The translations under genes and the position numbers were made by a program. From contig OZ024741.1 in NCBI GenBank assembly GCA_964016885.1, forward strand, positions 225,618,001 to 225,682,000: DNA of 64,000 nt, given 5' to 3'. The notes under the pieces were generated by a model. That model was not told the origin of the DNA. It saw only the letters and a program-made list of their open reading frames with translations, and did not search any database. This document shows positions 400-62,266 of this stretch, one piece after another. How positions within the stretch are numbered: position 1 is the stretch's first letter; every line of letters starts with the position of its first letter. This DNA is from Eledone cirrhosa. Its lineage: Eukaryota.

Positions 400-524
400 C
401 TGAATATGATCTGGACGGCCAGTACTTTCCATTCGACTCGCAACGTTTACAGTGTTGCCCCATATATCATATTGGGGTTTTCTGGCGCCGATTACCCCCG
501 CTACAACAGGGCCCACATTGACTC
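400..524 (-). CDS. ADCY: Adenylate cyclase exon (C2 catalytic C-terminal part: [42 protein letters not shown])
   Basis: Class III cyclase C2 signature with D of QYDIWG and N/R of TVNVASRM. Acceptor ttttacactag (525-527) and donor gtaagt (394-399); phase matches the exon at 5889-6006. Confidence 0.97.
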
Positions 525-610
525 CTAGTGTAAAAAAAAACAACATCTGAGTAATTATAACGCAACAACAACAACAACAACAATAATGATACTAGCAATA
601 ATAATAATAA

Positions 611-848: not shown

Positions 849-1152
849 CGGAGACTGAAGGACTGATTATATCAGCACAAGATCAGTGTCTGCCAACAAA
901 ATATTACCAAGCCTACATAATAAAAAATGGATGCAGACCATTATGCCGTATGTAAATAACAACCAGAGACCATTGACCATATAATTTCAATGTGCAGTCC
1001 TATAGCTCCAACCGAATACCTAAACAGGCATGACAGAGCTGCACAATACATACATTGGATAATGTGTAAGCAATTTGACCTGCCCCATCAACAGAATTGG
1101 TGGGAGCTTCACCCACCTCCCATACTTGAAAAAGATCCCATCTCAATCCATT
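845..1152 (+). mobile_element. Dong/R4-clade (RLE) non-LTR retrotransposon fragment
   Basis: Translates to KSETEGLIISAQDQCL..CR.C...CSPIAPTEYLNRHDRAAQYIHW (Zn knuckle + RHD helix); abuts an (AAT)n tract. Confidence 0.8.
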
Positions 1153-4100
1153 ACACCCGACCACCAGTTACTCTATGTTACCCCCACACTACACCCGACC
1201 ACCAGTTACTCTATGTTACCTCTACACTACACCCGATCACCAGTTACTCTATGTTATCTCTACACTACACCCGATCACCAGTTACTCTATGTTATCTCTA
1301 CACTACACCCGACCACCAGTTACTCTATGTTACCTCTACACTACACCCGACCACCAGTTACTCTATGTTATCTCTACACTACACCCGATCACCAGTTACT
1401 CTATGTTACCTCTACACTACACCCGACCACCAGTTACGCTATGTTACCTCTACACTACACCCGACCACCAGTTACTCTATGTTATCTCTACACTACACCC
1501 GACCACCAGTTACTCTATGTTATCTCTACACTACACCCGACCACCAGTTACTCTATGTTATCTCTACACTACACCCGACCACCAGTTACTCTATGTTATC
1601 TCTACACTACACCCGACCACCAGTTACTCTATGTTATCTCTACACTACACCCGACCACCAGTTACTCTATGTTATCTCTACACTACACCCGACCACCAGT
1701 TACTCTATGTTATCTCTACACTACACCCGACCACCAGTTACTCTATGTTACCTCTACACTACACCCGACCACCAGTTACTCTATGTTACCCCCACACTAC
1801 ACCCGACCACCAGTTACTCTATGTTACCCCCACACTACACCCGACCACCAGTTACTCTATGTTACCCCTACACTACACCCGACCACCAGTTACTCTATGT
1901 TACCCCCACACTACACCCGACCACCAGTTACTCTATGTTACCTCTACACTACACCCGACCACCAGTTACTCTATGTTATCTCTACACTACACCCGACCAC
2001 CAGTTACTCTATGTTATCTCTACACTACACCCGACCACCAGTTACTCTATGTTATCTCTACACTACACCCGACCACCAGTTACTCTATGTTACCTCTACA
2101 CTACACCCGACCACCAGTTACTCTATGTTACCCCCACACTACACCCGACCACCAGTTACTCTATGTTACCCCCACACTACACCCGACCACCAGTTACTCT
2201 ATGTTACCCCTACACTACACCCGACCACCAGTTACTCTATGTTACCCCCACACTACACCCGACCACCAGTTACTCTATGTTACCTCTACACTACACCCGA
2301 CCACCAGTTACTCTATGTTATCTCTACACTACACCCGACCACCAGTTACTCTATGTTACCCCTACACTACACCCGACCACCAGTTACTCTATGTTACCCC
2401 CACACTACACCCGACCACCAGTTACTCTATGTTACCCCTACACTACACCCGACCACCAGTTACTCTATGTTACCCCCACACTACACCCGACCACCAGTTA
2501 CGCTATGTTACCTCTACACTACACCCGACCACCAGTTACGCTATGTTATCTCTACACTACACCCGACCACCAGTTACTCTATGTTATCTCTACACTACAC
2601 CCGACCACCAGTTACTCTATGTTACCCCCACACTACACCCGACCACCCGTTACTCTATGTTATCTCTACACTACACCCGACCACCAGTTACTCTATGTTA
2701 TCTCTACACTACACCCGACCACCAGTTACTCTATGTTACCCCCACACTACACCCGACCACCAGTTACGCTATGTTACCCCTACACTACACCCGACCACCA
2801 GTTACTCTATGTTACCCCTACACTACACCCGACCACCAGTTACTCTATGTTATCTCTACACTACACCCGACCACCAGTTACTCTATGTTACCTCTACACT
2901 ACACCCGACCACCAGTTACTCTATGTTATCTCTACACTACACCCGACCACCAATTACTCTATGTTATCTCTACACTACACCCGACCACCAGTTACTCTAT
3001 GTTACCCCCACACTACACCCGACCACCAGTTACGCTATGTTATCTCTACACTACACCCGACCACCAGTTACTCTATGTTACCCCTACACTACACCCGACC
3101 ACCAATTACTCTATGTTATCTCTACACTACACCCGACCACCAGTTACTCTATGTTATCTCTACACTACACCCGACCACCAGTTACTCTATGTTACCCCCA
3201 CACTACACCCGACCACCAGTTACGCTATGTTATCTCTACACTACACCCGACCACCAGTTACTCTATGTTACCTCTACACTACACCCGACCACCAGTTACT
3301 CTATGTTATCTCTACACTACACCCGACCACCAGTTACTCTATGTTACCCCTACACTACACCCGACCACCAGTTACTCTATGTTACCCCCACACTACACCC
3401 GACCACCAGTTACGCTATGTTATCTCTACACTACACCCGACCACCAGTTACTCTATGTTACCCCCACACTACACCCGACCACCAGTTACTCTATGTTACC
3501 CCTACACTACACCCGACCACCAGTTACTCTATGTTACCCCCACACTACACCCGACCACCAGTTACGCTATGTTACCTCTACACTACACCCGACCACCAGT
3601 TACGCTATGTTATCTCTACACTACACCCGACCACCAGTTACTCTATGTTACCTCTACACTACACCCGACCACCAATTACTCTATGTTACCCCCACACTAC
3701 ACCCGACCACCCGTTACTCTATGTTATCTCTACACTACACCCGACCACCAGTTACTCTATGTTACCTCTACACTACACCCGACCACCAGTTACTCTATGT
3801 TACCCCTACACTACACCCGACCACCAGTTACTCTATGTTATCTCTACACTACACCCGACCACCAGTTACTCTATGTTATCTCTACACTACACCCGACCAC
3901 CAGTTACTCTATGTTACCCCTACACTACACCCGACCACCAGTTACTCTATGTTATCTCTACACTACACCCGACCACCAGTTACTCTATGTTACCTCTACA
4001 CTACACCCGACCACCAGTTACTCTATGTTATCTCTACACTACACCCGACCACCAATTACTCTATGTTACCTCTACACTACACCCGACCACCAGTTACTCT

Positions 4101-5430
4101 ATGTTATCTCTACACTACACCCGACCACCAGTTACTCTATGTTACCCCTACACTACACCCGACCACCAGTTACTCTATGTTATCTCTACACTACACCCGA
4201 CCACCAGTTACTCTATGTTACCTCTACACTACACCCGACCACCAGTTACTCTATGTTATCTCTACACTACACCCGACCACCAATTACTCTATGTTACCTC
4301 TACACTACACCCGACCACCAGTTACTCTATGTTATCTCTACACTACACCCGACCACCCGTTACTCTATGTTATCTCTACACTACACCCGACGACCCGTTG
4401 CAGTATGTTATCTCTACACTACACCCGACCACCAGTTACGCTATGTTACCTCTACACTACACCCGACCACCAGTTACGCTATGTTACCTCTACACTACAC
4501 CCGACCACCAGTTACTCTATGTTACCCCCACACTACACCCGACCACCAGTTACGCTATGTTACCTCTACACTACACCCGACCACCAGTTACTCTATGTTA
4601 CCCCCACACTACACCCGACCACCAGTTACGCTATGTTACCTCTACACTACACCCGACCACCAATTACTCTATGTTACCCCCACACTACACCCGACCACCC
4701 GTTACTCTATGTTATCTCTACACTACACCCGACCACCAGTTACTCTATGTTACCCCCACACTACACCCGACCACCAGTTACGCTATGTTACCCCTACACT
4801 ACACCCGACCACAAATTACTCTATGTTACCCCCACACTACACCCGACCACCAGTTACGCTATGTTACCTCTACACTACACCCGACCACCAATTACTCTAT
4901 GTTACCTCTACACTACACCCGACCACCAGTTGATCTATGTTACCTCTACACTACACCCGACCACCCGTTGCAGTATGTTATCTCTACACTACACCCGACC
5001 ACCAGTTACGCTATGTTACCTCTACACTACACCCGACCAACAGTTACGCTATGTTATCTCTCCTTTACAACCAACCACCCGTTACTGCATCCCATCTCAA
5101 CGTTACACCCGACCACCTATTACTACATGGTTTCTGAACGTTACACCCACCCATTTGTTATTACATACTATCTCACCCTTACACCCAACCATACATTACT
5201 CCATCTCATCCTCACGTTACATCCGACTCTACATTAATGCTTTATCTTCCCGTTCCAGCCTTCCAGCAATTGCTCTATGTCATTTCAACGTTACACCTGA
5301 CCAGCCGTTGGTGTATGTTACCTCTACACTACACTCGACCAGCCGTTGGTGTATGTTACCTCTACACTACACTCGACCAGCCGTTGGTGTATGTTACCTC
5401 TACACTACACTCGACCAGCCGCTGCTGTAT
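1153..5430. repeat. 38-bp minisatellite, ~103 well-conserved units (to ~5060) plus degenerate units to ~5430
   Basis: Unit acacccgaccaccagttactctatgtta(t/c)c(t/c)c(t/c)acact; the 38 period is visible at e.g. 1501/1539. Confidence 0.98.
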
Positions 5431-9729: not shown

Positions 9730-12319
9730 GAGAAGCAAAAAAATTGCTTATTGTGATCCAGTTCTTGGTTAAGAAAGCCAGTTTCATGGATGGTTTCAAC
9801 GTACGGTTAGGGGTAACTCCATAAGTTTGTAAGAATTGCGTTCAATCTTGGAGTATAAAGTATAAAAGAGAAAACACAGGTAAGCATTAAGAGAAGGATT
9901 TTATCCAGGTATTTACGACCGTTTCATTGGTAAGTGCAACCTTATATTGCTATACTGCAAATAGCAGCCACTCAATTATAATTGTTGTTCACAGTCCAAA
10001 TTTTCAAAATAGTGAGTAAGTTACTCTTGAAATAATTCTTAATATATAGAGAAAAACATTTATTTGGAATTGTATTTACTAGTATAGAGAGAGAGGAATC
10101 AGGAGGTGAGGGGACAAACGGAATAGTATAGAGAGAGAGGAAGGGGGAAGAGGTAGGAAGTAGAGTGACAAACTGAGATGGAGGGAGGGGTAGAGGTGGA
10201 AGGATTCCTTGGTCAGTTTTGATAGCAGACTTCATGTCGTGGAATGTAGTGAGTTAAAGAGAATTAAATTGATCATAGTGGGAGTGATGGATAGAGAGGG
10301 AGAGAGGGGGGGGGGGGGATATAAAGAGATAAATATATATATATATATATATGATAAAGATAAAGATAATAATGACAAAAATAAAAGCAAAGAAGGGGGT
10401 GAGAAAGAAGAAAAGAATAGATAGCCAAGAAGGGGAGGGAATGAAGGAAGAAAACGAAGAAATAGAAGAGGAATGAGGGAGAAGAGGGGGATATATGTAT
10501 TGGTTTTGTAGGTAATTAAAAGAGTTTAGATACAACAAGTCTAAATATATCCAGTGGATAAAGCCTTAGCATTCACCAAAGCCAATTCTGACATAACAGA
10601 CGACGGGATAAAAATCATATTAGCTGCTAGGAAAACAATAATTAAATTTGAAAACGCCTATTGGGAACGTAAGGATAGATTAAATAACTTTGACATCACG
10701 ATGGGGGCTAACAACTCGGCTCAAGTCACAGATTTAGTAGGTATTTACATAGCCCATAGTTTACAAAGTGAGTTTAGCGACCTTCACGGTGGAATCTACA
10801 GAGACGACGCCCTTCTCCTAGTTAAGAACCTAAATAACCAGAGCATAGAAAGACTCCGTAAGAATATTAGAAAGACTCTCGGAAAACTAGGCCTTAGCAT
10901 AACGTATGAGTATAGCACTAAAACAGTTAACTTTCTAGACGCGACGCTTAACCTAAATACGGGACCTATAAAACCTTTTCACAAAATTAATGAAAACTTA
11001 GCATACATCAACTGTAACTCAAACCACCCACTATCCATAATTAAATCCATTCCATGCAGCATATCCTTTAGGATCTCCCGCCTCTCGTCTAACCGACAAA
11101 TCTTCGAAGAACATGCAGAATACTACAATACCGCATTAGACAAGGCAGGCCACTTAGATAGAGTAGAATATATAGATGAAAGCCTCCGTGAAGCGCACAC
11201 GAACACGCATAACACAAACTCCGGTAACACACGCACACACGCACTTACGCATAGAACTGCAAAGTATACGGCAAATAGAAATACAGCATCGAAATCAAAC
11301 AAGTCACGCAGTAGAAAATATATTTTGTATAACGCCATATTTAACACCTCTATTAGTACTAACCTACCCTCTACCTTCTTTAGAATAATAAATAAGCACT
11401 TTCCAGATTCACATAGATACAGCAAAATCCTTAACACTAAATTTATTAGATTATCTTACTCCACGGCACCAAATATAGAGGCACACATTAAGATGCTTAA
11501 CGCTAAAAAATACATAACAACACCAAAACACAAATTTACAACAATAAAAATACAATCATCACCGAACACAACAGAATATCTAATACACAACCACCCACTA
11601 ATAAGCAAACAAAGCGTAACACACTTGTACAGGCATCGCAGCCCACCAATAATGCCAAAGTTGCCCATGACAAGAATTGTAACTGCCACCTACCTGAAAT
11701 CTGTCCATTACATAATGAATGTATGCAGTCTAACCTGGTTTACCAATGCACAGTGGAATAAGACAACCAGAAATGGTATTACATCGGAGCGACTGGGAAT
11801 ACATTTAAAGCCCGTTGGTATACACACCATTACGCAATGAAACATTCCCAGCATCGTATGTAACTACCCTTGCAAGCAAGACCTGGCAACTGAGGGAAAG
11901 TAACCATCAATACACCCTGAAGTGGAACAAATTATCGAACGCGCCCCCATATCGGAGTGGTATGAGAAGCTGTCGATTATGCGACCTTGAGCTATTCCAC
12001 ATCTTGAGTTCGAAGAATAAGTTACTCAACAATAAAATCGAAAGATCAATTTATTGTAAACATAGACTCAAAGAGAAGTTTTCGCACTACAAATCGAAGC
12101 CTTAACCTCTTACTACTAACTGACAAACTTTATACCATCTTGTTGTATCTAAACCCTTTTAATTACCAACAAAACCAATACATATATCCCCCTCTTCTCC
12201 CTCATTTCTCTTCTATTTCTTCGTTTTCTTCCTTCATTCCCTCCCCTTCTTGGCTATCTATTCTTTTCTTCTTTCTCACCCCCTTCTTTGCTTTTATTTT
12301 TTCTCATTATCTTTATCTT

Positions 12320-12385
<66 letters not shown>

Positions 12386-12855
12386 TTATCTCTTTATATC
12401 TCCCCCTCTCTCACTCCCTCTCTATCCATCCCTCCCACTATGATCAATTTAATTCTCTTTAACTCACTACATTCCACGACATGAAGTCTGCTATCAAAAC
12501 TGACCAAGGAATCCTTCCACCTCTACCCCTCCCTCCATCTCAGTTTGTCACTCTACTTCCTACCTCTTCCCCCTTCCTCTCTCTCTATACTATTCCGTTT
12601 GTCCCCTCTCCTTCTGATTCCTCTCTCTCTATACTAGTAAATACAATTCCAAATAAATGTGTTACTCTATGTATTAAGAATTATTTCAAGAGTAACTTAC
12701 TCACTATTTTGAAAATTTGGACTGTGAACAACAATTATAATTGAGTGGCTGCTATTTGCAGTATAGCAATATAAGGTTGCACTTACCAATGAAACGGTCG
12801 TAAATACCTGGATAAAATCCTTCTCTTAATGCTTACCTGTGTTTTCTCTTTTATA
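9730..12855 (+). mobile_element. Penelope-like element, 5'-truncated RT + GIY-YIG, flanked by ~0.7-kb inverted copies of its 3' end
   Basis: ORF 10554-11840 has FDITMGA..AQVTDLVG, GGIYRDD, VNFLD and SNHP; frameshifted CNC..CP...C, YIGATGNTFKAR and C..C endonuclease to 12105. 9861-10539 is the inverse of 12139-12855. Confidence 0.92.
12705..12806 (+). ncRNA. Type I hammerhead-like motif, U3-A8 core variant, long stem II (inverted copy at 9910-10011, - strand)
   Basis: TATT-TTGAAAA-tTTGG...CCAAt-GAAA-CGGTCG-T-A-AATA. Confidence 0.55.
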
Positions 12856-12947: not shown

Positions 12948-15900
12948 TATATATGCAAAAGTTTTATTGAAAATTGTTGGGTTACAACGAGTAAATATTT
13001 TATAACTGATATAAAAGCACTCAACACTCAAATATAAAAGCACTCAACTTTTAATATGATATCCCAGAAATATATATAATGAAATAAATATGGTTTTATA
13101 AATATAGTTTCCATTTGTTTAATATCGTAAATCTACTCCAAAACTTGTTGAGTGCTTTTATATCAGTTATAAAATATTTACTCGTCGTAACCCAACAATT
13201 TTTAAATAAAACTTTTGCATATATTTTTCTCCAATACTGTTGAGCGCTTTATATTATAACTGAAAAAAAATGGAATTCTTTAAGATCTCTTCTTCTCTAA
13301 AAGACATACCTCTACCTAGAAACAAGGACTTTATTAAACAATTAATAGATAAATCAGACTCTTTTATAAGGAGAATCAGGTGGCGTGCATTCCACTTTGA
13401 TAAATCTAATATAAATGAAAATGTCTCAGACTTAGACAAAGTTTTCAAATCTAAAAAAAATCCACCCTCCAACAAACTTTTAATTGATTTTGAAAACGAT
13501 ATAATTTCTATCATACAAGGAGTCAAATTCAAGAGAAACTTCAAAGGCCAGGAATATCTGAAAAGCATTAAGGATAATATTGTGAGCTTAGAGAGAACAG
13601 AGAAGATCTTTGTGAAATCGGACAAAACCAACAACCTCTATGGAGTGGAAAAAGACATGTATAATGGCCTCATACTGAAAGAACTAAGGAAAAAGTACAA
13701 GGTAGCAGATAAGGCTGAACTTGAGAAAATGAATGTTGAGGCATCTTGTATAATGCATGAGTTGGAAATTGAGAACAAAACACAACCTTTCGTGCCCAGG
13801 AAACCCAAGATCAATATGAAAGATCACAAAAGAAATTTTGAAAATGACTTGCCAGTCAGATTGATTGCACCATCAAAATCTGACCTGGGTAAACTTAGCA
13901 AAAACATTCTAGACAGGGTGATACAGCAAATTAAAAAACTTGAATTGTTTACCTAACTTGAGCTTGTGGAAGGGAACTGGAGAGGTCATTGAGTGGTTTA
14001 AAGAAATTAAATATAACAATAATAATAAATTTATTCAACTAGATATTGCTAACTACTATTCATCTATTACCCCTAATCTACTAAATAAGGCACTAAATTA
14101 CGCATTCAAACATACAGACCTAACTAGCAAGGAAATGCACATTATATTATCGGCAAGGAAAACATTGATAGAATTTAATAACCAACTATGGACTAGGGCA
14201 GATAGAGATAATAATTTTGACATTACTATGGGATCATCAGACTCAGCTCAGGTAACGGACCTTGTGGGCCTATTTATAATTAATTCGCTGCATAGGAAAA
14301 TACCCGGTGTTACCGGAGGATTATATCGAGATGACATGCTTTTACTTATTGAAAATAATAACTCTGAACTAAATAGAAAAAGAAAACAAATTATACAATT
14401 TTTTAATTACCTTAATCTAAAAATAGAAATTGAGAATAACCATAGAATAGTCAATTTCCTAGATGTAACATTAAATCTCAACACATGTCTTCACTATCCA
14501 TTTCACAAGTTAAATGAAAACTTGAATTATGTAAGTTTTAGCTCTAATCACCCCCAGATCTGTCAAAAATACTATAGTGAACTCTGTTCAAAAACGTATT
14601 TCTAGAATCTCATCTAATAAAAATATTTTCGACGAAAAAGCCCAGTATTACAATGAAGCGTTAGCTAGAGCAGGATATAGTGATAAAATTATGTACATCG
14701 ATAATAGACAAACTAACCAAAATAACAACAATTTTAATTACGGTAACAACTTTAACAACTATAATAGAAAGCATTACAATAATTCCAAAAACCAGAAAAG
14801 AAATAGAACTAGAAATATAATATGGTTTGCTCCCCCCCCCCCCCCCCCCTTTCTCACTAAACATTAAAACCCACATCGCTAAACTATTTTTTAATGCTCT
14901 TGACAAACGCTTCCCTAGAACACATAAGTATCACTCAATTTTCAATAGACATACTATAAAATTAACATACTCGTCCACCAAAAATTTAGCACAAAATATT
15001 AATAGAATAAATAATAGGAATCTAAAACCTAGCCAAAATACCGAAAATAGCCTAAACAATATTCAAGTAAACAACTGTAACTGTAGAGATAGATCTAAAT
15101 GTACGCTAAATAACAATTGCTTAGTTAAAAATATAATATACAACTGTAATGTTAAAACTGACTTAAATTCTTTTAATTACGTTGGTTCCACCTCGACAGA
15201 ATTTAAACTTCGCTATAATAATCACAAGAATTCTTTCACGGATCCAAATAAAAAATCTTCAACATCACTATCAGGCTTACTCTGGCAACTTAAACATGAT
15301 AACGTTGGATATTCGATGGTTTGGAATATAGTCTCAAAAGGGATTCCTTTTAATTCCTCTTCTGAGACATGTGACCTCTGCGCGGAGGAGATATTTTTTA
15401 TACTAAAATCTAAAAATTCCCTTAATTTACGGACCAATTTATTCAGCTGCTGCAGACATAGATTGAACTCAACTTTTAAATATAAATATAAATTTAAAAT
15501 GTAGTATATTTACTTAAGATATTTAACTATTTATGAAACTTGGCGATAAATCTTTCGATTCCTTCAAATTTTTAAAACCTTCTTCATGAGTATATAATTA
15601 ATGAGATTAATTAAACTACCCTAAAATGGGGATGCTCCCAATCTATTGAATAAATTTTTAAGATAGATAAACATTTATAATAAATATAAGAGCATTTGTA
15701 GAACAACTGGGTATCCATAAATTTTTTTGAATGATTTCTGCTAAATAAGTTTTGTTGAATAATTTTGGTTTTGTTTGCTTTTGATTCTGATTGCTTCTAA
15801 TGAACTTGACAATATATTGTCAAATAAATTGGAAGGGTGGTTTTCTGTGGTTGATATGCGCGGCATACTATGTTTTCTTACGTCCCTAGATACTCTGGGG

Positions 15901-16616
15901 AGTGATGAAAATATTCTTGGCGTTTTTAATATATTGATATCTGTTGTCTATTCTATGCTTGAACGATAATCATGTAAGTGAGGGCAAGAATATTATTATT
16001 AATATTAATGTATATTTTATGTTTATATATATATGTATGTACATATATGTATGGTGGAATCTTTTGTAACGCAATGAAGATTTTCATGAAAAATAAGAAT
16101 TTACAGAGCCGATCACGTAAATTCACATGTGTGTCTATAATTGTCAACTTGAATTTGAGATAACCTTCTCTTTTCTCTTTTTTTTTTCATGAAAATACAT
16201 ATATACTTATGTATTTCAGTATTTTTGAAGTTTTATCTCAGATTTTGATTATAAACCTAAGAATTTTTAAACTAAACATAGGGTCATTATTTTTTCATTT
16301 TTTCACACATTATTGATATGTGTCTCATTCATGAATATTGATATTTACATTATAATACCTAATTCATATGAATTGATAATTCAAATGGATGAAACATAAT
16401 ATTTTAAATCTATCATCTTTCTTTCTGAATATATCTATTTCTTCTCCTCTTCCCTCTACACTTGACGGGATTTATGTATCGGCTGATTTAACTGTATCTC
16501 TCCCACCTCGTATGATAGATATTACTCGATCTACCTCTTCTCTCCCACCACCTATATCTCTCTCTACCTCTCTGTATTTTTATTTTTATTTCTCTCCGTA
16601 TCCTTAACACTATAAC

Positions 16617-16649
<33 letters not shown>

Positions 16650-17122
16650 ACAGTACCCCCTTCCCTCCTTAATCTCTCATTTGTACGTTGTTCATCTGTG
16701 CCCAAGCTGCCTATCATTTTTCACTTCCTCAATATATTTCTCTCTCCCATATCTCTTTCTCTCTCTATCTCGCTCTGTTGTTTTTTCTTTACATACATCT
16801 CTTCAGCTCTTCGTCTTCATCTCTAACTGTCCTTAGCACTATACACTTTCTTTCTTCTTATCTTCGTCCTTAGCACTATACACTTTCCTTCTTTTTTCTC
16901 TTCGTCTTTCTTTCTAAGTGTCCTTAACATTTTCACTACCAAATCAACTTTTTAAATGGAAGTTGTAATGTTTAAGGTATGTCAAATTTATTTATAAAAC
17001 GGTTTATATATTGTATTTTGTCTGAGGAAGGCATACCATATTTTTAATATGATATCCCTGAAATATATATAATGAAATAAATATGGTTTTATAAATATAG
17101 TTTCCATTTGTTTAATATCGTA
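12948..17122 (+). mobile_element. Near full-length Penelope-like element (RT + C-terminal GIY-YIG, 3 frameshifts) with direct pLTR and 5' inversion
   Basis: ORFs 13270-15504: SLKDIPLP..RWRAFHF, PVRLI, FIQLDIANYYSSI, GGLYRDD, CNCRDRSKC, IIYNC..YVGST..FKLRYNNH. 13049-13129 repeats at 17042-17122; 12948-13025 is the inverse of 13147-13224. Confidence 0.95.
17013..17079 (+). ncRNA. Minimal type I hammerhead ribozyme in the 3' pLTR of the PLE
   Basis: TATTTTGT-CTGAGGA-AGG..catat/atatg..CCT-GAAA-TATATA-T-A-ATGAAATA; palindromic stem III. Confidence 0.75.
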
Positions 17123-17228
17123 TATATATTTATATATACATATATATAAAAAAACAAAATTTGTTTTCGTTCTTAACGTGGTGGATACTTAAATGTATTA
17201 ATATATTGGTGAGTGAATAATAATAATT

Positions 17229-18887: not shown

Positions 18888-18986
18888 CTCAATCATTAGT
18901 GTGGGCATTAAACCAACGGCGCCCATATATATACTTCCAATAGTTTTTATTTTGTCTATGGCACAAAACCGGGGTTCTGTCAGGAG
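18888..18986 (-). CDS. ADCY: Adenylate cyclase exon (LLTEPRFCAIDKIKTIGSIYMGAVGLMPTLMIE), not in the ORF track
   Basis: Manual reverse translation gives the KIKTIGS.YM motif with the adenine-specifying Lys. tattttgcag acceptor and gtaaga donor; 99 bp, phase 0/0. Confidence 0.96.
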
Positions 18987-26762: not shown

Positions 26763-27175
26763 CATACACATATAAATAGGTGCATAGAAGTAACAGAAAT
26801 GACAGCTGTAGTAATATTTCCTTGTCTTCCTGGTTAATTGAATGATGAGATAGAAAATTACAAGATTCTATTCAGAGACAGAAACATTTTGATGTATATT
26901 TTTAGCCCACTGTGATAGCTAAAATAAATAAGGTAATATTATTGGAATCAATTCAATTGACTGTGCTCCTCTGAAACAAAATTGGCTTTGAGCCCAGTGA
27001 AAAGAAATTATCATTTACTAATAATCATGTCATGTTGCTGCCGACATATTTTTTTTAATTCACATATGCCACACTCTTGGTAACAACACCAGCCAATTTC
27101 TTCCACTAGAATATTCTTTAAATGGAGTTTAGGCCTCTCGGCGAGGCGTCAACGATAATAAAGCTTTGTTATTAC

Positions 27176-27322
27176 CTCATCAAAGTCAAAAATTATTTCG
27201 TTCAAAACACGTAGACATTCTACTCCTTGGTTGTTGGCATCAAGTTCCATATAGAATTCGGAGAAATTAGACACCGAGGCAAAAAACACACCCACTCTAT
27301 TGTATTGCTGACTATACAATTC
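27176..27322 (-). CDS. ADCY: Adenylate cyclase exon ([49 protein letters not shown])
   Basis: Canonical C2 start ELY..Y..VGV.FAS..NF.EFY.E...N..G.ECLR.LNEII.DFDE. ttttgcag acceptor and gtaat donor; 147 bp. Confidence 0.97.
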
Positions 27323-27829
27323 CTGCAAAATAGTAGTAAAGGAAGGATAAAGAGAAACGAATAAAGATTTAGATTTGGATAAAATCATTTATCTTTTGAA
27401 ATAATTCATGTATCAATTGAAGTAAAATAAGAAAGAAATTAAAAAAAAAACGAGAAAAAAAAACGAAACTGGTTTTGTTATAAGCAATATAGTAGAAACC
27501 TTCTAGATTCACTTTCTCATGTTATGAAAGGGGCTATGTAACAGTGACATTCTATAAGTGGGAAATACAACAATATACTATATGAATATCATTCATGAAT
27601 GTGTTTCGTATTTTTCTTTAAGTTTTAGTTACTCGTTTATTGTTCATTATATTGTTAGATTATCTGTCTTTATAAAACGGACAATAAAGATTGCAGGATG
27701 ATATAATGCAGCTAATGATAGGGTTGTGACATGTAAAGTGCCTTTGAAAAGTATATATACATGATGAATATCATCATCGCTTTTACTTATGATACTGGAA
27801 TTTTGTCATCTTATCTACTAACTGTGGTC

Positions 27830-28010
27830 TGATAATATTACTCTGAGGTCCCTTCGATTCTAGGCTTTGTTTCAACATCTTGAATCGTTTTTCTAGATCC
27901 ACCACAGATTCAACAATAAGTATTAAGTATTTAGAAAACAGAATATTCCAGAGATAACTGTTCTTAAACTCTACGATAATGCACCCTGGGAAGCACTGTC
28001 TATCGATACA
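27830..28010 (-). mobile_element. Decayed RTE-type RT fragment
   Basis: EFKNSYLWNILFSKYLILIVESVVDLEKRFKMLKQSLESKG resembles the (P)WELLYADDLVLIAES..EL..R...WK..LESKG motif. Confidence 0.5.
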
Positions 28011-28016
28011 GCAACC

Positions 28017-29130
28017 TTGATAGTGAAATCTCACTTAGGATTAGGAAAGCAAGTGATGCTTTCGGAAAGCTGGAAAGGAGACTCTGGAGTGGGCGAGACA
28101 TATGCAAGAAGACAAAGGTATAGGTATACAAGGCATGTGTGCTCTCTTTTCTTCTTTATGCCTGCGAGACCTGGGTCACATATTGACACCACCTTAAGCA
28201 ATTGGAGCGTTTCCATCAGATGTGTCTCAGACGGATCCATGGCGTTCACTGGAGGGTCCATATCAGTGATGTCGAGATTTTGGAAAGATCTATGTGTGAC
28301 AGTATAGAAGCTCTTGTGCTTAAGCAACGGCTCCGTTGGAGTGGTCACATTGCCAGGATGAAGGATTCTAGAATACCAAAACAACTCTTTTATGGAGAGT
28401 TAGTTAAAGGAAAACGACCGCCAAATAAACCAAAAAAGAGCTATAAGGATTCCTTGAAAGCCTCTTTGAAAGACGCTAACATCTCTGCTGATATATGGGA
28501 AAATATTGCTGCTGTTCGTAATAGATGGAGAAAGACTGTATATGAGGGAAAAGTTGCTTTGAGGCATCTCGAATCGCATACGAGAAAGTAAAGCGGGATG
28601 TGAGGAAGGGCATTGCTGTTGCACTTCCAGACGGCGAGGGTCCTCCTATGGTGCTGACATGCAGCATCTGTGCGGGACACTGCCTAAGCAAAGCTAGACT
28701 CGAAAGTCATGTTCGCAGTCATAAAGTAAGACCAGTGGTTGACTACCAGGCTGCTGTTGGAGATGTTACTCATCATGCTTGCCAAGCATGTGGTAGAGAA
28801 TGTAAATCTGCAGGAGGGCTCAAACGACATACAAAAGTACATGAACTCCAACCACAGCCGGCTATTCCCAGCGAATGTTTTGGTTGCCGACTCTGTGCAA
28901 GAAATTTTAGATCATTGGCTGGGCTAAAAAGCCACATTCGATTGCAGCGCTGTTAACTGCTATCGTGTGTGTGTGTATAGATATGTTTATGTGTGTGCGT
29001 GTGTGTGTATATATATATATATGTATATTATTATTTTTGTAATTATTATTATTATTGTTATTAATATATATATATATATTTTTTTTTCTCGTGCAATGGC
29101 AATACTCGATAACGACGGGGCAGCCATCAT
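28017..29130 (+). mobile_element. RTE (BovB-like) LINE 3' part with three C2H2 zinc fingers and an (ATGT)n tail
   Basis: LLYACETW, LERFHQMCLRRI, RLRWSGHIARM.DSRIPKQLFYGEL, then C..C..H..H x3 (third imperfect); 3' end gcaatactcgataacgacggggcagccatc-(atgt)n. Confidence 0.9.
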
Positions 29131-29257: not shown

Positions 29258-30920
29258 GTTCTTCTGGTTTTATAATTTCACAAAATTTTACCAATAGATA
29301 GAGAGAGTCGGTTTCTAACATAGACACAAGACTCTCTCATTGGAATTTACACAACATCAACTAGGTAGATATGTATGCATGCATGTGTAGATGTGGATGT
29401 TATTGTATGTGTGGATGTGTATGTTTTGAGTTGTATGTGTGCATGTGTATATGCTTTGTATCTGTACATGTGTATATGCAGATAATATATGCAACATTTT
29501 TGGAATGTTTTACATATTTTTACTGTTCCATTAATGGATTGTACTTGTAATTTCCTAACTAGTTGTGTTCTTTCTGTTCCTATGAAGCCTAGCTTCTCAA
29601 GATTTGTATTGAGGCAGTTATTAACACACCCCAGTGCCCCAATAATCAAGGGCATACATCTGAAGGTGTTATCAGCGTGGAGTATATGCAGGTTTCTCAT
29701 CAGTTCTGCATAAATATTCTCCTTTTCACTAATCTTTGATATTATATTGGCATCTGCTGGGCAGCTAATTTCCACTACTGTGCATGCTTTCTTCTCCTTG
29801 TCCTATATCATAATATCTGGTCTGTTATGCCTGCATTTTATGGGTTTTTTTACTGGAACATTCCACCAGTACTCTTTCATATTATGTACATGGATGTCTT
29901 CCACATTGCTGTAGCTTTTAATGTGTTTATTATCGGGGCTATCTTTTTTACGAACTGCATTGCACAGTGCTTTGGCCACTACATCATGCCTCATAGGTAG
30001 ATAGTACCGCGATGACATCTTTGGGCAGCTGCTGATCACATGGATGATATCCCCGATGTTAGTTCTGCAGAGTCTGCACTTGCTATCACATCTAGGTGTT
30101 TTGCCTGCATCCCTATCTCTTTTGTGAATCAGGTATTTCGTGCTAATCTCCTGTTCTTGGATTGCAAAAGCGTATCCTTCAAAGTGGGAGCCAATATAAT
30201 GCGTGTTGGTCCAAGATAGACTACTTTCCTTATCTATATTACTCTCACTCTGGACTTCCTGGCAACATATCCATGCATGATTTTTTGCTGATAGGCATGC
30301 AGTTTTTCATCCATGGATTCGCTGTCATACTGCTTAGATACTTCCCTGGGTGTGAGATTTTGATTATCACACAGGGAATATCTCACGAGGACTTGCTTCC
30401 CAACTCTCATGATCTTATCTGTTTCATGCAGATAGACTTCCTCGAGAGACGGGCTCCTACGCTTCGAGATTCGGAGATGTTATCGGAGACATATGATGCG
30501 ACATTCAAATGCTGTCTGGACTGATGTTAGGCCTCTGCCTCCCTGTTTACGTTTCAAGTAAAGGCGGTCTATGTCACTGTTGATGTGGAAGTTTCCGGTA
30601 TTTAATATTTTTCGAGTTCCAACATCAATTGCTCGGATTTCGTCTATCGTCCAATCAAGTATTCCAAACGTCGGTGTTAGGACAGGCATATCAAACACAT
30701 TGTGAGCCACTGTTTTGTTTTGCGCAGAGAGTTCCGATGACCAAATCTTTCTTAATCGGGTATAGTATTCCCTGGTTACGCGTTCCTCATTACAGATACC
30801 ATTATAGGATATGTTCTCATCTATCCCAGGTATCTGTAGTAGTCCTCATCAGATATCGGTGAAACAGTTAGACCATTGATGACAATGTTGCTAGATTGGG
30901 TTGTTGTTTTTCCCCGCTTT
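29258..30920 (-). mobile_element. Dong/R4-clade LINE, 5'-truncated and disrupted
   Basis: RLYLKRKQGGRGL, FEGYAFAIQEQEI, CRLC..IIHVISSCP..RHD, NRPDI..VEISCP (PD-(D/E)xK RLE); (TATG)n on both sides. Confidence 0.9.
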
Positions 30921-31736: not shown

Positions 31737-31856
31737 CATATGTGTGTTATTTTGGTGATCAATAAAATGAACCGCGACGTGAGCCGGTAAAAGATTGCAT
31801 AATATTTGGCGGTTATTTGTTTGTAGTTCTGTCATCTCTATTTTTTCCTCCGTTGC
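31737..31856 (-). CDS. ADCY: Adenylate cyclase exon (ATEEKIEMTELQTNNRQILCNLLPAHVAVHFIDHQNNTHM), not in the ORF track
   Basis: Helical linker with the N.LP.HVA.HF motif. ttatttttgtag acceptor and gtaagt donor; 120 bp, phase 0/0. Confidence 0.96.
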
Positions 31857-35020: not shown

Positions 35021-38000
35021 GTTTTCTTTATTAACCACAAGGGTTTACATAAAGTAGACATTAAGGACAGTACAGGACAACACAGGACGGTACAAATGGG
35101 CATTTCTGCGTGTAAAAGAAAACAGAGGATGTAATAAAAAATAACAATGAAAAATTCCCCAATAGGGGGGAGACTTCGGAGGGACATTTGTGGAGAAAGC
35201 CCAGTAAAAGGCCACCAAGGCAAGTGCCCTCTCCCAGTTTTCCACCTTTAATTTACAGACACATACTCAGAGTAGGCCCATTCACTCGTGCCATACTTGC
35301 TTCTCTCACCCATCTTTCAACAAAATGCTGGGAAGAGAGCACTTCCCTCTCTACCCTGATTTTCCTTTTCAAATGAAATTTGAAAAAGTTAATCAGGGCA
35401 TCACCGAAGAGGTAAGTGCTCGTCTTCAGCCCTTTCAAGCGTGTCCACCATACTATCTCTTTCGCCATGGTCACCAGACAGATAAAAACTGCCTGCCCTT
35501 CCCGGCTAAAGGAAGAGGGCGGGGCAATCCCCACAATGGACTCAGCTGATAGCTGGATCCGTCCTACACGTGACAGCAGGTGTTCGACATAAACCCACAA
35601 GTCAGCAATGCTCGGACACTGGATGAGTGCGTGCAGGACGGTTTCGTCGCCCTGCGCACATCTCGGACATGCCCGGCTGACGGCACCTCCATGCCTGTTG
35701 GGTTTATCCCGAACTGGCAAAGCTCCTCGGTAGCACTGCCAGGCCAGGGATTTCTGGAAGTTGTCCATAGGCCCCGGCCCGAAAGTCCTTCCGAAGAGAT
35801 TGGCTAGTTGATTTTCGTCGACGCCTAGATTTTCTCCAAGTACGCCGTCGCTCTTCTCCTCCACTAATCCTCTATAGAACGCCAAGGTGGAGTTTCCACC
35901 GATCACATTGCCCGATTGGTCGAGGGCTGTGAGCGCCTGAAGACATTCCAGTCTCCAAGCGCTCCCTCTCGGTCTTCGCATGACGCAGGACTGCAGCTCC
36001 GTCAAGGAGACGAGCTGGGAAAAGACGTGTCTAGCAAACGGCGACCACAGCTGATCACCGTCGAGGAAGAGGTGGAGATGTAGCCTGAGCGTGTGTCTGC
36101 GCATCATCAGCCACGGCATGCCCAGCCCTCCACGTAGCGGGTGTTGACAACAGATGGACCGCCTGACCATCGGAGCGCGTCCCTTCCACAAAAAGCGAAA
36201 GAGCAAACGCTCCAGCGCAGTCAGGCGGGGCTTAGGACAAGGTACGACGGTCAGGCGGTAGTAGATGACGGACGCGATGTACGCGTTAGCCACCTCCGCT
36301 CGACATTTCAGGGATAGCTTCCTCTACGCCCATTTCTGGGGGAAAGAAGCCACCCTGCTCGTCACCTCGTCCCAGTTTTTGTCCGGGAGGTCCGGACCGA
36401 ACCAGACCCTAAGCAATTTAACCGGTCCGTCCCTCCAGCGCCCGACGACGCTGTTGGACGGCATGGACCTGCCTCTCCAGGTAACGAGCTGCAGGCCCAC
36501 TGACTTTTCCTGGTTGATCATTGCTCCTGTCACCGCTTCGTATTCTCTTAGTGTAGTGCCGATCGCCTCGATGTGTTTGGCGTTCGACACCACTACGGTG
36601 ACATCGTCCGCATATGCTGACACGGATCTTCCGCATCCTAGTTCGCGCGGGACGCTCCTCAACGTCTCCAGTTTGTGCAGTAATGGATCGAGAGTCAATA
36701 CGTACAAGAGCGACGAGAGGGGGACATCCTTGGCGGACCGAGCGCATGATGTTGACGGTTCCGAAAGGTGACGGTTCACTCTCACCACAGAGAAGATGTC
36801 GCTGTGCATGGCAGCGATCCAGCCTCTGAAGACGGGCCCAAAGCCAGCCGCCCTCAGGACTGCCGCTAGGTAACGATGGTCGACCCTATCGAAAGCTTTC
36901 GACTGATCTAAATTGATCAAGGACCCACCCGTGCCAGGTTCCCTAGCTACCCTCTCTACGATGTATCGCATGAGGTGGAGGTTGTCGTGGATGGATCTGT
37001 CGGGAATGACGCATGTCTGCGCCTCTCCCACCAGACCACCAACTACAAGCGCCAACCTCTTGGCTAGCACCTTGGCCAAAATCTTGAACTCTGTGTTTAA
37101 CAAAGTTATGGTCCTAAAATTATCTATGTTATCCCCCTTGTTCCGATCCTTTCTCAGCAGCGCCACAGCTCCTCGGCTCACAGAGCTGGGAATTCTCCCG
37201 CACTGTTGCCAGTTGCAGTAGACGTCCGCCAAGAGGCCTCCGAACAAGTCTGGAATCTGTACGTAAAGTTCATAGGGCAGACCATCCAAACCAGGCGATT
37301 TACCCATTGTGCAGCCAGTCATTGCCTCCCGTACTTCAACGGCTGTTATCGGCATTTCGCAACACTCCGCCTCAGTGGCCGAGAGCCGCGGCAGTCCGTC
37401 GAGGTAGACACTAAAGTCTATCCCTCGACCCGGCCCGCGGCTGCCCCCAAACAGCTGTGCGAAGTGTCGCTGAAAAGCTTCACACATTTGCTTGGGATCA
37501 AGTAGCATGCGCCCGTCGTGGTCCACCAAAGACCGGATCGTGGCTTTGTTGCCACGACGCGCCTCCGCCACTCGGGCCCATTGAACGGCTTTCGTCCCCC
37601 CGTGTCTGAGAGCACGCACCCTAGCTCTGACAAGGCAGCCTACGTGCTTAGCATTGAAGAATTGGTCAAGGGCCAATTTCGCCGCAAGTACGTCGGTCGT
37701 GATGCCTTTGCTAAGCGCCTGGTCTAATTTTCTAACTAGTTCTTCCTCTGCTCTATTTTTCTCTATTGCTAAAGCCTTACTAAAACTAATGGATTCTATT
37801 CTAATCGCTCTTTTCAGAGCAAACCACCACTTGTTGTTGACGATGGCCCCCGTCAACACCCGCTTAACTATTTCGCTAATCCGGTCTCTGTAGGCCTTGC
37901 GCGCTGGTAAGGACGCGTTTAGCTCCAGTAGCCGGGTCCTCGTCTATGAAGCCTATCTAAGTCAAGCACACAGATCACGAATTTGTGGTCCGTGTAGCTG

Positions 38001-42604: not shown

Positions 42605-42888
42605 TGATGCAAATAGTCATATTGCTGGAAAAGAGGTCGATGAGTGTACTCCATGAGTACAATGCACACGGTAGCCATTGCTAACATCATGAAAAGTTTG
42701 AGCATGGCTGAGAGTCGCAGGAAAATAGACACGCAAATAAAGCTAATGATACAGCTCATGTATATATACTGCGGTAGTTCGCATCTCAAGTGACTTTCTC
42801 CAGTGAAACTTGTATTATCTTCACTCAGCTGGAAGGTGGGAAATTTCGAAAGCGTGTAGTTAAGGATCAAACTTGGTTGGCAGCAAAA
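42605..42888 (-). CDS. ADCY: Adenylate cyclase exon (M2 extracellular loop and TM helices; FCCQPSLILNYT...CELPQY...FLRLSAMLKL...YDYLH)
   Basis: C..P.Y and FL.L....KL motifs of AC M2, with candidate N-glycosylation sequons NYT and NTS. ctatttttccag acceptor and gtaagt donor; 284 bp. Confidence 0.92.
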
Positions 42889-45351: not shown

Positions 45352-45614
45352 ATTTTATTATTCATTTTATATATATATATATGTGTGTGTGTATATATAT
45401 ATGTGTGTGCGTATATATATATATGTGTGTGTATATATATGTGTGTATTTATATATATGTATATATATGTATATATTAGAAAGTGAGGTTTTTTTTACAA
45501 AATGAAAAATAACCGAGGTGTCCTACACGAGTGAAAGTATAAAGAAAAAGAGATGAAATCGAAAATGCAACTGGAGTCTTATTTAAAAAAAAATATATAT
45601 ATATTTATTTGGTT

Positions 45615-45652
45615 CCTTTACCGGTTTCGCAGTTCTTCTGCTTTTCAAAAGG
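45615..45652 (-). ncRNA. Minimal type I hammerhead ribozyme, U3-A8 core variant
   Basis: CCTT-TTGAAAA-GCAG aagaa CTGC-GAAA-CCGG-T-A-AAGG; all three stems close. Confidence 0.75.
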
Positions 45653-45895
45653 TGAGTTGAGATGGAGGGTCTGTGGTTTTTCTCATATATATATATATAT
45701 TGTTATATTTGGGGAGGGTCATATTTGTGTAATATTGCCAGAATTAATAACAGAACACACTCACTGTTTGCTTTTCGCTTCTGTGTCTTTTATATCGGTT
45801 AATTTAATTTATTCTGTCCTCAATGTTGCCATTGACTGACCAACGGTCAAAAATAATACAGATACAATATAGACTCAAACACATATATATAGTTT

Positions 45896-47259: not shown

Positions 47260-47783
47260 ATATATTGGTAAACGGAAAAGAAAATGCTGACAAATTGTTC
47301 ACAGTGAAAATTAGTTTAATTAGGAATAAGTGGGAATTAGTAATAGTATAGGTTAGTATTCAGTTTTGGTTTTAAGTTTTACCGGTTGCGCATTTCTAAT
47401 GCTTTTCAAAAATAATTTTGAGATAGAGCGTCCGTGATGTTTGCTCTGATCTGATTAGTTTTGGGAATTCTAGCTGTTTTTATGTTCAAAAAGTGGCTCC
47501 AGCGGTATTAAAATAAGTTTTGCGCCAATTCGTGTTGCAAAAATTCTTGTGGTCAAAACAATTTTGATTGGTCGGTAGAGGTCATGTGAATGTTAAAAAT
47601 TGATTTTGCGCCAAATGTAGGTTTGTGTCGGCTGATTGAGAAGTCACTGAGAAATAAGTCTTTCAAAACAAATATGTGTGCGTGTGTGTGAAGTAGTAGT
47701 AAAGAGGTTCGTTGTTGTGATAATGGTCAGCAGGGATGTGTGTGCGAACCGCAGCCTGTTGACAGTTCAAATGCCTATTAAGA

Positions 47784-47822
<39 letters not shown>

Positions 47823-48575
47823 CAGAGTAATTCGTGGTAGAGGGATGGTCAGTAGGAATGTGTCTGTTTGTGTGTGGGGGTTATTTTAACATGTTAAAAG
47901 ATGTTTTTCAGCTCTTGTCTTATACGGAGAAGTGTGTGTGTGTGTGTGTGTCTCTTTGTATGTTAATGTACGCGTGTGTATGTGTGTGTGTATATATGTG
48001 CGTGTGTTCGCATACACGTGTGTGTGTGTGTGAGAATGTGTGTGTGTGTGTGGGTGGACCAGTAATTATTTTTGTGGTACTGGTGAGATGGTGTACATTA
48101 TTCGATATTTTCAGTAAAAACGATTCTCTCAATAGAACATCAAAAACCTTAATAATAAAAGGTGTGAAATGATATATAGTATTGGCATAATACCAAGGTG
48201 TGTGTGAGTGTGTCCAGATTGTACGTACTGCAAGGGGAATCCAAAAGGTCTTGCCGTATTGGAATACCTGTGCACAAATATGTATCTGGAGTGTGTCCAG
48301 AAATTGTATACCTGTGCACAAATTGTATACCTGTGCACAAATTGTATACTTGTGTACAACATAAAAACAGGTAGAATTCCCAAAACTAATCAGATCAGAG
48401 CAAACATCACGGACGCTCTATCTCAAAATTATTTTTGAAAAGCATTAGAAATGCGCAACCAGTAAAACTTAAAACCAAAACTGAATACTAACCAATACTA
48501 TTACTAATTCTCATTTATTCCTAATTAAACTATTTTTCACTGTGAACAATTTGTCAGCATTTTCTTTTCCGTTTA

Positions 48576-48583
<8 letters not shown>
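47260..48583. mobile_element. Fold-back element with ~225-bp inverted arms (47260-47486 / 48357-48583) carrying a decayed U3-A8 hammerhead
   Basis: Arms read directly; TTT-TTGAAAA-GCATT aga AATGC-GCAA-CC(G/A)G-T-A-AAA; (TA)n flanks. Confidence 0.8.
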
Positions 48584-48607
<24 letters not shown>

Positions 48608-60451: not shown

Positions 60452-62160
60452 TTCGTTTCTGAATTTGCTTAGCAAGATCCTTTATCTGAAAACGTGTGTT
60501 GAAACCGATATTGTCATGCTTTGGGAGGGTCATGTTGCCAATAAGAAACACACTCCAATTTATTATAAATTAAATATATAAATTTATAAATTTCCGGTTG
60601 GTTGTTTCCACAACCGGACTGTTGTTAATATATTGTCAAAGTTCTTTCGTCTCACATTCTGTGACCTCTTCAGTGACTGGGGATTCTTTTGTTTGTTTTT
60701 GTGGCTCTGTCCTACGCCATCTTGTTTTTGTGTTGTGTGGTTAGTTTGCGCATGTGTTACATCCAGGTGGCTGTGTGTGTTTATATTTGTTTATATATTT
60801 GTTTATTTACATGTTACTGGTTGGTTCTTTGTTCTATATGTGTGTTTTTATTTTATCCTTAATTGTAAGTTGGGATGTTGCTATTCCATTCATGTTTTCT
60901 ATTTAATTTTGGTTGGAGTTCATTTATGTTTATTGCCTCTGTGATTTGTCTAAACATTGCGTCTTTTCTGTGTGTAGGTTCTATTTTTATTTCTATGCTC
61001 TCTAATTTACCCTTATGTTCTATTTTAGCATGTTGGTGGAGTACAGCAGATTATTTTCTATCTTGAAGCTCTCGCCAGTGTTCATTTATCCGTTCTCCTA
61101 TACTACGAGCTGTACACTATATTCTTATCTCTACATTGTCCTTCAGTACATCTTATGCTATATCCTACATTTCTAGTTTTACAGTTAATATGGGGCTTAG
61201 TTTACAGATTATACATTTATTATCTATACAGTGAGGTCTTTGAAAAGGGTATGTATTACTAATAAGTGTTTTATGGAGGTACCTGGTCTTTCTACTATCT
61301 TAATATTGAGTTTATGTTTATCTAGGGCCCTTCTAAATTCGTAAGCTAATTCATCCCTAGGGGTTGTATTGATGAACAATGGTAGTTGTTGCTATCATAC
61401 CATGAGTTTATTCTATTAACCTTATTCCTAGTTCATTCTATTCTATTCCAAAATTTGCTCCTATACAAGGGGCAGGTCCCATTTGTATCATTATTTACCA
61501 TTTTTTCCCATTTGGTTCTGGCTCCTCTATATACTCTGATTTTATCTCTCTGATTGTAACCAGAGAACTGCATACGGTGGATGAAGTGCTGTAAGTGTCT
61601 CTCTAGTTCTTTGGGGTTGCACATGCGGGACACGTTTCTCATCACCCGTACCAAATCCGCAATCAGTATGTTGATTTTGGTGTGATCCGAAACAGCTGAG
61701 TTTTGGTGGATCAGGTATTTGGAAGTCATGGGTTTGGCATAATGGGAATGGAGGATTTGTTTTTTGTTATTAATGGTTTCTAACCAGAGCTCTGTGTCTA
61801 GTACAGGTAATCGATGGTTGGGGTGTTTGCTTGGGTAGTCTATAGTAACTCTAATACTCTGGTGGATGGAGTTAGCTATTTGCTGGATGCTTCCCATGGT
61901 GTTTTTCTCTAATTCCTGACTGTTCTCTAGTGGGGGTGTTTTTACTACGATGTTTATATCATCAACGTAGCGGGAGTACATTATCAGGGTTAAGAGGTTG
62001 CTGTCTTCTAATTGTTCTTTAAGTTTAAGTTTAAGTCTATTGTCCCACCATACCATGAATAGGTTGGCTATGTCACCTGCAATGCTAACACCAATGGCTG
62101 CTCCCTCCTCTTGGGCATATGTTTGTCCATTAAATTTGAACATATGTTCCTTAAGGGTTA
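59960..62160 (-). mobile_element. PLE of a second lineage: RT fragment, decayed GIY-YIG, and duplicated terminal repeats with hammerhead motifs (60635-60677, 60087-60134)
   Basis: ORF 61433-62143: QEEGAAIG, YSRYVDD, LPVLD, HYAKPM; ARSIGERINEH at ~61060-61110; GTCA-CTGAAGA-g-GTC..GAC-GAAA-GAAC-T-T-TGAC. Confidence 0.8.
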
Positions 62161-62266
62161 ATTTTATATATATATATAAGAAAAAGGATATTTAATTTGT
62201 TTTTAATTCAACAAATATATATATTTATAACTGATTCGAAGCATTCTACAGGTTTTCTGGAGTATA

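Follow-up and report, generated by a model that had tools for sequence, protein, structure and literature searches.

Hammerhead ribozymes in which the pair between core positions 3 and 8 has covaried to U3-A8 are known from nature, as is a U10.1-U11.1 mismatch, and the U3-A8 variant is active in vitro (Perreault 2011, PMC3088659). In Penelope-like retroelements (PLEs) this core occurs in minimal hammerheads, for which Cervera and De la Pena (2014, PMC4209133) used a descriptor of its own and obtained about 1,300 hits in Schistosoma mansoni; Fig. S3 of that paper includes a PLE-associated motif with a UUGAAAA core. According to the same report, minimal PLE hammerheads show no cleavage as monomers and low cleavage as dimers, and one PLE hammerhead was described as active only together with its protein (PMC11167929). 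The U3-A8 class in PLEs is thus already published and counted, and is not novel. An initial annotation of the DNA studied here had suggested a large uncounted class, invisible to CUGANGA-based searches. More than 30,000 copies are indeed missed by such searches in this genome, but the class itself had been counted in 2014.

The window (the whole stretch of DNA that was analysed, 64,000 nucleotides of the Eledone cirrhosa contig OZ024741.1, positions 225,618,001 to 225,682,000) contains five U3-A8 motifs. These belong to three insertions, two of which are inverted pairs, and not to several unrelated elements as first assumed; the insertions represent two lineages, one of Neptune type (the sister families A and C) and one of Hydra type (family B):

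45615-45652, minus strand: family A minimal type I hammerhead motif with U3-A8 core, 4-bp stem I, 4-bp stem II and palindromic CCGG stem III
45476-45685, minus strand: 3' tail of the Neptune-type PLE family A, 5'-truncated, about 210 nt, between (TA)n runs
9861-12855, plus strand: family B insertion, a 5'-truncated Hydra-type PLE with an RT-EN remnant (10545-12087) and a 3' tail reaching to 12855
12705-12806, plus strand: family B hammerhead motif with U3-A8 core, U10.1-U11.1 mismatch, long stem-loop II and CGGUCG stem III
9910-10011, minus strand: inverted copy of the family B motif within the same insertion, sense to the host pre-mRNA
47260-48584, no single strand: family C insertion, in which a Neptune-type PLE 3' tail is accompanied by an inverted copy (227 nt) of its own end; the arms are 97% complementary
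47377-47412, minus strand: family C hammerhead-like motif of the left arm with U3-A8 and A13C (GCAA), sense to the host pre-mRNA
48432-48467, plus strand: family C motif of the right arm, in which a further change (CCAG) breaks the palindrome

In the family A motif all parts of a minimal type I hammerhead with a UUGAAAA core were found in place, as the initial annotation had stated. Read on the minus strand it starts with stem I CCUU (45652-45649) and the core UUGAAAA (45648-45642), followed in order by stem II GCAG/CUGC with a 5-nt loop, GAAA, CCGG, UA and AAGG; the cut site is predicted between 45619 and 45618. A descriptor leaving positions 3, 7 and 8 free gave 7 matches in the window, with this motif as the sole U3A8 among them. 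The heptamer UUGAAAA occurs 40 times in the window and the monomer folds no better than shuffles (z = -0.66; 49 of 200 shuffles fold as well), so that folding energies by themselves do not distinguish the motif and significance was sought in genome counts. For family A a homodimer fold is predicted in which stem III pairs across two copies. Since stem III needs a second copy to form, a single motif is predicted to remain uncut. The CCGG of family A (45621-45624, minus strand) is also present in the left arm of family C (47382-47385, minus strand), and with this common palindrome and the sense orientation of both motifs to the host pre-mRNA a mixed dimer is conceivable; the two motifs lie 1.76 kb apart. 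A splice-donor-like word adjoins the family A motif on the opposite strand (45653-45658). Among contigs from sequencing runs, three sets matched the family A tail, at 45480-45578 and thus outside the motif.

The core UUGAAAA of family B, likewise reported at first, was found at 12709 (plus) and, in the inverted copy, at 10007 (minus). The motif 12705-12806 does have the equivalent core, but the description needs correction for the U-U mismatch at 10.1-11.1, a stem-loop II of 75 nt and a palindrome (CGGUCG) that pairs by wobble. U-U at 10.1-11.1 also occurs in other C3-G8 families; the mismatch is therefore not tied to U3-A8. A further C3-G8 family (L110, L124, L134, L149) has a C-A mismatch at these positions and an 8-nt palindrome. 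The Hydra-type remnant is preceded by an inverted copy of the family's 3' end (9861-10539), and splice-donor-like words adjoin the motif on the opposite strand at 12695-12704, 12806-12812 and 12832-12842.

The UUGAAAA cores of family C lie at 47409 (minus) and 48435 (plus). The initial annotation had assigned this core to both arms of 47260-48583, which holds, but the arms are not complete hammerheads: GCAA replaces GAAA in both, stem I has only 3-4 bp (U-A), and the right arm carries CCAG. GAAA (G12-A13-A14-A15.1), which belongs to a minimal type I hammerhead, was found in families A and B and is lacking in family C, so we regard the latter as a hammerhead-derived motif and do not count it as a hammerhead. 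The palindromic stem III followed by U16.1-H17 is CCGG-UA in family A and in the left arm of family C, CGGUCG-UA (wobble) in family B, and broken in the right arm of family C. The paired variant U3-A8 at positions 3 and 8 is common to all three families.

Pfam matches, translations and an exon scan place several exons of one membrane adenylate cyclase, including its second cyclase domain, on the minus strand of the window:

27176-27322, minus strand: host adenylate cyclase exon, within a Pfam Guanylate_cyc match at 27152-27388
31737-31856, 18888-18986 and about 400-531, minus strand: further adenylate cyclase exons from translations and exon scan, with a Pfam Guanylate_cyc match at 316-591
42605-42707, minus strand: candidate membrane-domain exon of the adenylate cyclase from the exon scan

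The family B pair lies between these exons, which bears out its earlier description as intronic. For families A and C, both located upstream of the last identified exon, an intronic position would follow from the domain order of such cyclases. Three of the motifs (45648, 47409 and 10007) have the same orientation as the adenylate cyclase pre-mRNA. The window also contains a minisatellite (997-5300, about 106 copies of a 38-nt unit) and other retroelement remnants at 35253-37943 (minus), 27927-28956 (plus), 29347-30845 (minus) and 61433-62191 (minus), comprising Pfam matches to RT and zf-RVT, a LINE-like piece that ends in C2H2, and additional fragments of RT. Canonical C3-G8 hammerhead-like motifs were seen at 17014-17079 (plus), 62611 (minus), 50887 (minus) and 49369 (plus); the one at 50887 comes after a region with a Hydra-like EN remnant that lies on the opposite strand.

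The motifs are assigned to the 3' tails of PLEs, those of families A and C to Neptune-type and those of family B to Hydra-type elements. A 3' repeat downstream of an ORF with RT and GIY-YIG was found for all three, in the case of family A via the EN end only. The distance from the GIY-YIG end down to the motif is about 0.4-1.2 kb at most U3A8 Neptune loci and about 0.6-1.0 kb at family B loci. The RT-EN ORF of family C was detected about 1.0-1.15 kb upstream of the motif (L289, L290, L291), and L291 has near-intact ORFs of 654 aa plus 134 aa. Family C and a further U3A8 group, F (1,700 matches including relatives; RT 71% identical to that of family C), carry the clade motifs DKG and CX4CxxC, matching the Neptune definition in PMC8557442; with the CX2-5CxxC linker, the C-terminal GIY-YIG and CCHH-type residues this motif-based assignment covers C and F. 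Family A is placed in Neptune by EN and tail homology. Its copies are dispersed and variably truncated at the 5' end; many form head-to-head pairs, and (TA)n runs flank them. Longer ones (L032/L296) extend to a C-terminal GIY-YIG located about 1,050 nt upstream from the core, and this EN end, the only part of the ORF recovered, is 52% identical to the EN of family C. The tails of A and C are identical at 90 of 123 nt (73%, E 6e-17), in an alignment that takes in about 85 nt before the core. A and C are thus sister families, and their common core would most simply be inherited.

For family B we found RWK, DKT, CxCX5C, a C-terminal EN and a (TA)n target, as in Hydra. The longer copy L285 contains the RWK, DKT and CxCX5C motifs, and the translation of L282 was likewise used for this call. 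A Pfam search gave no match for five Hydra-type ORF pieces nor for L285, so the clade names rest on motifs. The RT of family B is 24% identical to that of family C. Next to family B the window contains a second element of this type:

13264-17148, plus strand: second Hydra-type PLE, near full-length, with a frameshifted ORF (13264-15504) and a canonical C3-G8 motif (17014-17079) in its tail

This element shows 44-53% protein identity to family B, and the same linkage of ORF and motif was found in L099 and L136. Both core states thus occur within Hydra, C3-G8 (17022) and U3-A8 (family B). The distance between the RTs and the unalignable stems suggest that U3-A8 may have arisen independently in Neptune and Hydra.

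Three other carriers were considered and rejected. A and C as non-autonomous elements of fixed length proved to be an artefact of cutting at microsatellites, since longer copies lead to ORFs. A Naiad-clade host (N-terminal GIY-YIG, DKA) was ruled out by the C-terminal EN in B, C and F. Non-LTR retrozymes are short non-coding tandem repeats with the hammerhead at their boundaries, whereas copies of A, B and C are dispersed, 5'-truncated and lead back to ORFs. Elsewhere, L143 (281-3381, minus) carries 11 canonical hammerheads in tandem, about 310 nt apart, an arrangement that would fit a non-LTR retrozyme.

The genome counts (3.0 Gb searched) were made with a pattern requiring a pyrimidine at position 3, a purine at position 8 and a CCGG stem III; stems were not enforced and the reversed pattern served as control. 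This pattern gave 20,798 matches compared to 44 for the control. C3G8 accounts for 13 of them (control 6), U3G8 for 131 (control 9) and C3A8 for 147 (control 12), leaving about 20,507 for U3A8 by subtraction. U3-A8 is therefore the family consensus and not a sporadic product of decay, and the unpaired cores, each with 0.6-0.7% of the CCGG matches, are far from being as frequent; a sporadic product of decay or equally frequent unpaired cores would have spoken against the initial proposal. Family B yielded 983 matches (control 0), with U3A8 in 98 of the 100 matches listed. The pooled U3A8 class comprises more than 30,000 pattern matches in the genome. The initial annotation had also attributed the double change in elements with different stems to selection on an active fold, for which an excess of paired cores was to count as support. 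The copy counts do not prove this: each copy takes over its core from one of a few masters, and the counts are for that reason not independent evidence of selection.

An unbiased sample of 1.2 Mb, drawn from fixed positions as 120 stretches of 10 kb each and searched with a descriptor free at positions 3, 7, 8 and 13, gave 123 matches compared to 11 in the reversed sequence. Among the 123 cores there were 97 C3G8 (17 of them from one family in two loci), 14 U3A8 (6 of these with GCAA), 2 U3G8, 2 C3A8 and 8 others. U3A8 is thus a substantial minority of the minimal hammerhead motifs in this genome, about a tenth of the sample, and not the rule. Of the 12 clusters with at least 2 members, 9 were C3G8, 3 were U3A8 (families A, B and C) and none was unpaired. 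In L115 (minus, near 3181) there is another U3-A8 motif, whose stems differ and whose palindrome is CAAUUG; it is single in the sample and possibly represents a third lineage.

Both stems covary among the subfamilies, stem I as CUU/AAG, UUU/AAA and CAA/UUG, stem II as GCAG/CUGC, GCAU/AUGC and GAUG/CAUC. Stem I is weak in some of them: in several U3A8 subfamilies no more than 1-2 of the 3 positions of stem I adjacent to the core are paired, which speaks against strict constraint. Position 7 is A, U or C across the Neptune subfamilies while 3 and 8 stay the same, a conservation of the core that is inflated by having picked these loci by the core pattern. Of the 13 C3G8 matches to the CCGG pattern about 6 (L063, L065, L066, L067, L069, L071) are relatives of U3A8 families by their flanks, compared to 1.1 expected from independent single changes; the remaining ones are 3 rearranged family A copies and 4 unlinked matches.

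A small subfamily of the Neptune group has one extra base before UGA (L338-L349, e.g. L340, L341 and L345). A hand tally of 50 matches gave 21 U..A, 14 C..G, 11 U..G, 1 C..A and 3 other combinations (Fisher p = 1.5e-4), although these matches represent a few haplotypes and not independent events, and in some of them both bases could pair into stem I. The tally looks like a path at positions 3 and 8 from U-A over U-G to C-G, and in this subfamily the pair may switch between U-A and C-G through U-G beside the one-base insertion. Read without the insertion, the matches have mostly a purine at position 3, and 29 of 85 are purine-purine by hand tally; the register is ambiguous. The amplified haplotypes with a purine before UGA are evidence against the explanation preferred below.

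Taken together, these data show minimal type I hammerhead motifs in PLE 3' repeats; U3-A8, the consensus of the Neptune-type group (A, C and relatives) and of the Hydra-type family B, was probably fixed once in each lineage and then inherited by the copies. Most probably U3-A8 is a tolerated isosteric swap, and the 3-8 pair would be kept by selection in the master elements. Two motifs are predicted to pair through the palindromic stem III and thereby to allow slow self-cleavage of a tandem PLE precursor RNA; A and B would cut as dimers or with the PLE RT-EN protein, processing this RNA, and lone intronic copies such as 45615 would be inert passengers. A scan of pairwise mutants of one hammerhead, in which the 3-8 pair was rescued only by a G-C swap (PMC9901934), argues against this explanation.

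Less probable, though to be taken seriously, is that the tails retain the hammerhead shape as an element for binding by the RT-EN protein or for folding, or else as a slowly eroding vestige; amplification would then not need cleavage, and U3-A8 and A13C would be tolerated and not compensatory for catalysis. The weak stem I of several subfamilies would fit, as would the fixation of A13C in family C (GAAA in 44 of 11,263 matches) next to the near-intact ORFs of L291. Mutants of a PLE hammerhead had no effect on insertion in vitro and no reads ending at the cut site are reported in PMC11167929, the former result, like the amplification of family C with A13C, also weighing against the cleavage explanation, and Naiad PLEs are described as amplifying without canonical hammerheads (PMC8557442). 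On the other hand, A, E, F, G/H and B all retain positions 4, 5, 6 and 9, GAAA, the palindrome and UH, whereas their loops and position 7 are variable. This is the pattern of catalysis, although it was also largely the criterion by which these loci had been selected. The clusters of the sample were picked without fixing 3 or 8, and none of the 12 has an unpaired consensus.

The absence of an unpaired family consensus also speaks against the view that U3-A8 is a product of AT-biased drift, originating in one or two masters and spread by hitch-hiking with successful families, in which case its abundance would be silent on selection for the pair. C to U and G to A are the changes favoured by an AT-biased genome, which argues against the preferred explanation. 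All CCGG-type U3A8 families examined belong to one Neptune-type group, so that about 30,000 copies reflect about two events, and unpaired cores of 0.6-0.7% correspond to the level expected from neutral decay of dead copies. We nevertheless hold drift to be improbable, as the paired state recurs in the Hydra family, in the singleton with different stems and in the Cercyon PLEs of Schistosoma (PMC4209133), and relatives of U3A8 families are found among the C3G8 matches more often than expected. That UUGAAAA is simply a common word of AT-rich DNA and the hammerhead a chance fit might be suspected from the frequency of the heptamer in the window and from the shuffled monomers; in an Rfam scan of the window (E up to 5), moreover, the best 150 of 240 matches were microsatellite-driven miRNA and snoRNA-like noise with no hammerhead. 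This reading has practically no likelihood left and is already refuted by the controls: the descriptor matches of the sample exceed those in reversed sequence by 123 to 11, 111 of the 123 fall into the two paired classes, and the motifs have a fixed position in PLE tails and covarying stems.

Family C is the lead worth keeping. It gave 11,263 genome matches (control 0), with GCAA in 97 of the 100 matches listed, and 29 copies had a median identity of 94% to their majority sequence. Among 36 copies, many of them selected by the motif, none of 31 motif columns was diagnostic for subfamilies compared to 25 of 251 flank columns (p = 0.089). The A13C family demonstrates that amplification is possible with a non-canonical core. 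Its cleavage is predicted to be impaired, and either the core would still cut or amplification could do without cutting. A limited literature search gave no match for A13C in hammerheads. It is unlikely, in our view, that family C has an undescribed, still active core (U3-A8 plus A13C) amplified about 11,000-fold by an autonomous Neptune-type PLE. If so, C and its sister family A, in which A13 is kept, would be a natural pair to test the tolerance of A13C, for which the U3-A8 background or the PLE protein are candidate causes, the alternative being retrotransposition without cleavage. Whether PLE hammerhead cleavage is needed for retrotransposition is the question touched by this family, and its about 11,000 copies with altered GAAA offer a direct test.

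Compared to the U3-A8 subtype of minimal hammerheads in the Cercyon PLEs of Schistosoma mansoni, as described in PMC4209133, the motifs of Eledone cirrhosa are likewise of type I with a 4-bp stem I and a palindromic stem III requiring a dimer, and they share the location in PLE terminal repeats, the mostly single truncated copies and the inverted pairs. They differ in number (more than 30,000 matches compared to about 1,300), in their Neptune-type and Hydra-type hosts, in the lack of an extra base after A9 in A and C, and in A13C of family C. The natural core variants in section 8 of PMC3088659 comprise A6C, A6a, U13a and U15.1-A16.1; neither A13C nor an insertion adjacent to position 3 is among those given there. 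With the Neptune-clade PLEs of Craig et al. (2021, PMC8557442) our Neptune-type families have DKG, CX2-5CxxC, a C-terminal GIY-YIG, (TA)n targets and inverted 5'-truncated copies in common, but all subfamilies sampled here have the U3-A8 core, whereas the descriptors of that paper use cuganga. Family B agrees with the Hydra clade (section 11 of the same paper) in RWK, DKT, CxCX5C, the C-terminal EN and (TA)n targets; the hammerheads described for that clade are canonical, whereas here one Hydra-type family has C3-G8 (17022) and another U3-A8 (B). Descriptors restricted to cuganga thus overlook whole PLE groups. What the Eledone cirrhosa genome adds to these systems is scale, with its more than 30,000 U3-A8 pattern matches, and the occurrence of U3-A8 in two PLE clades that are far apart from each other, alongside a C3-G8 control family inside one window.
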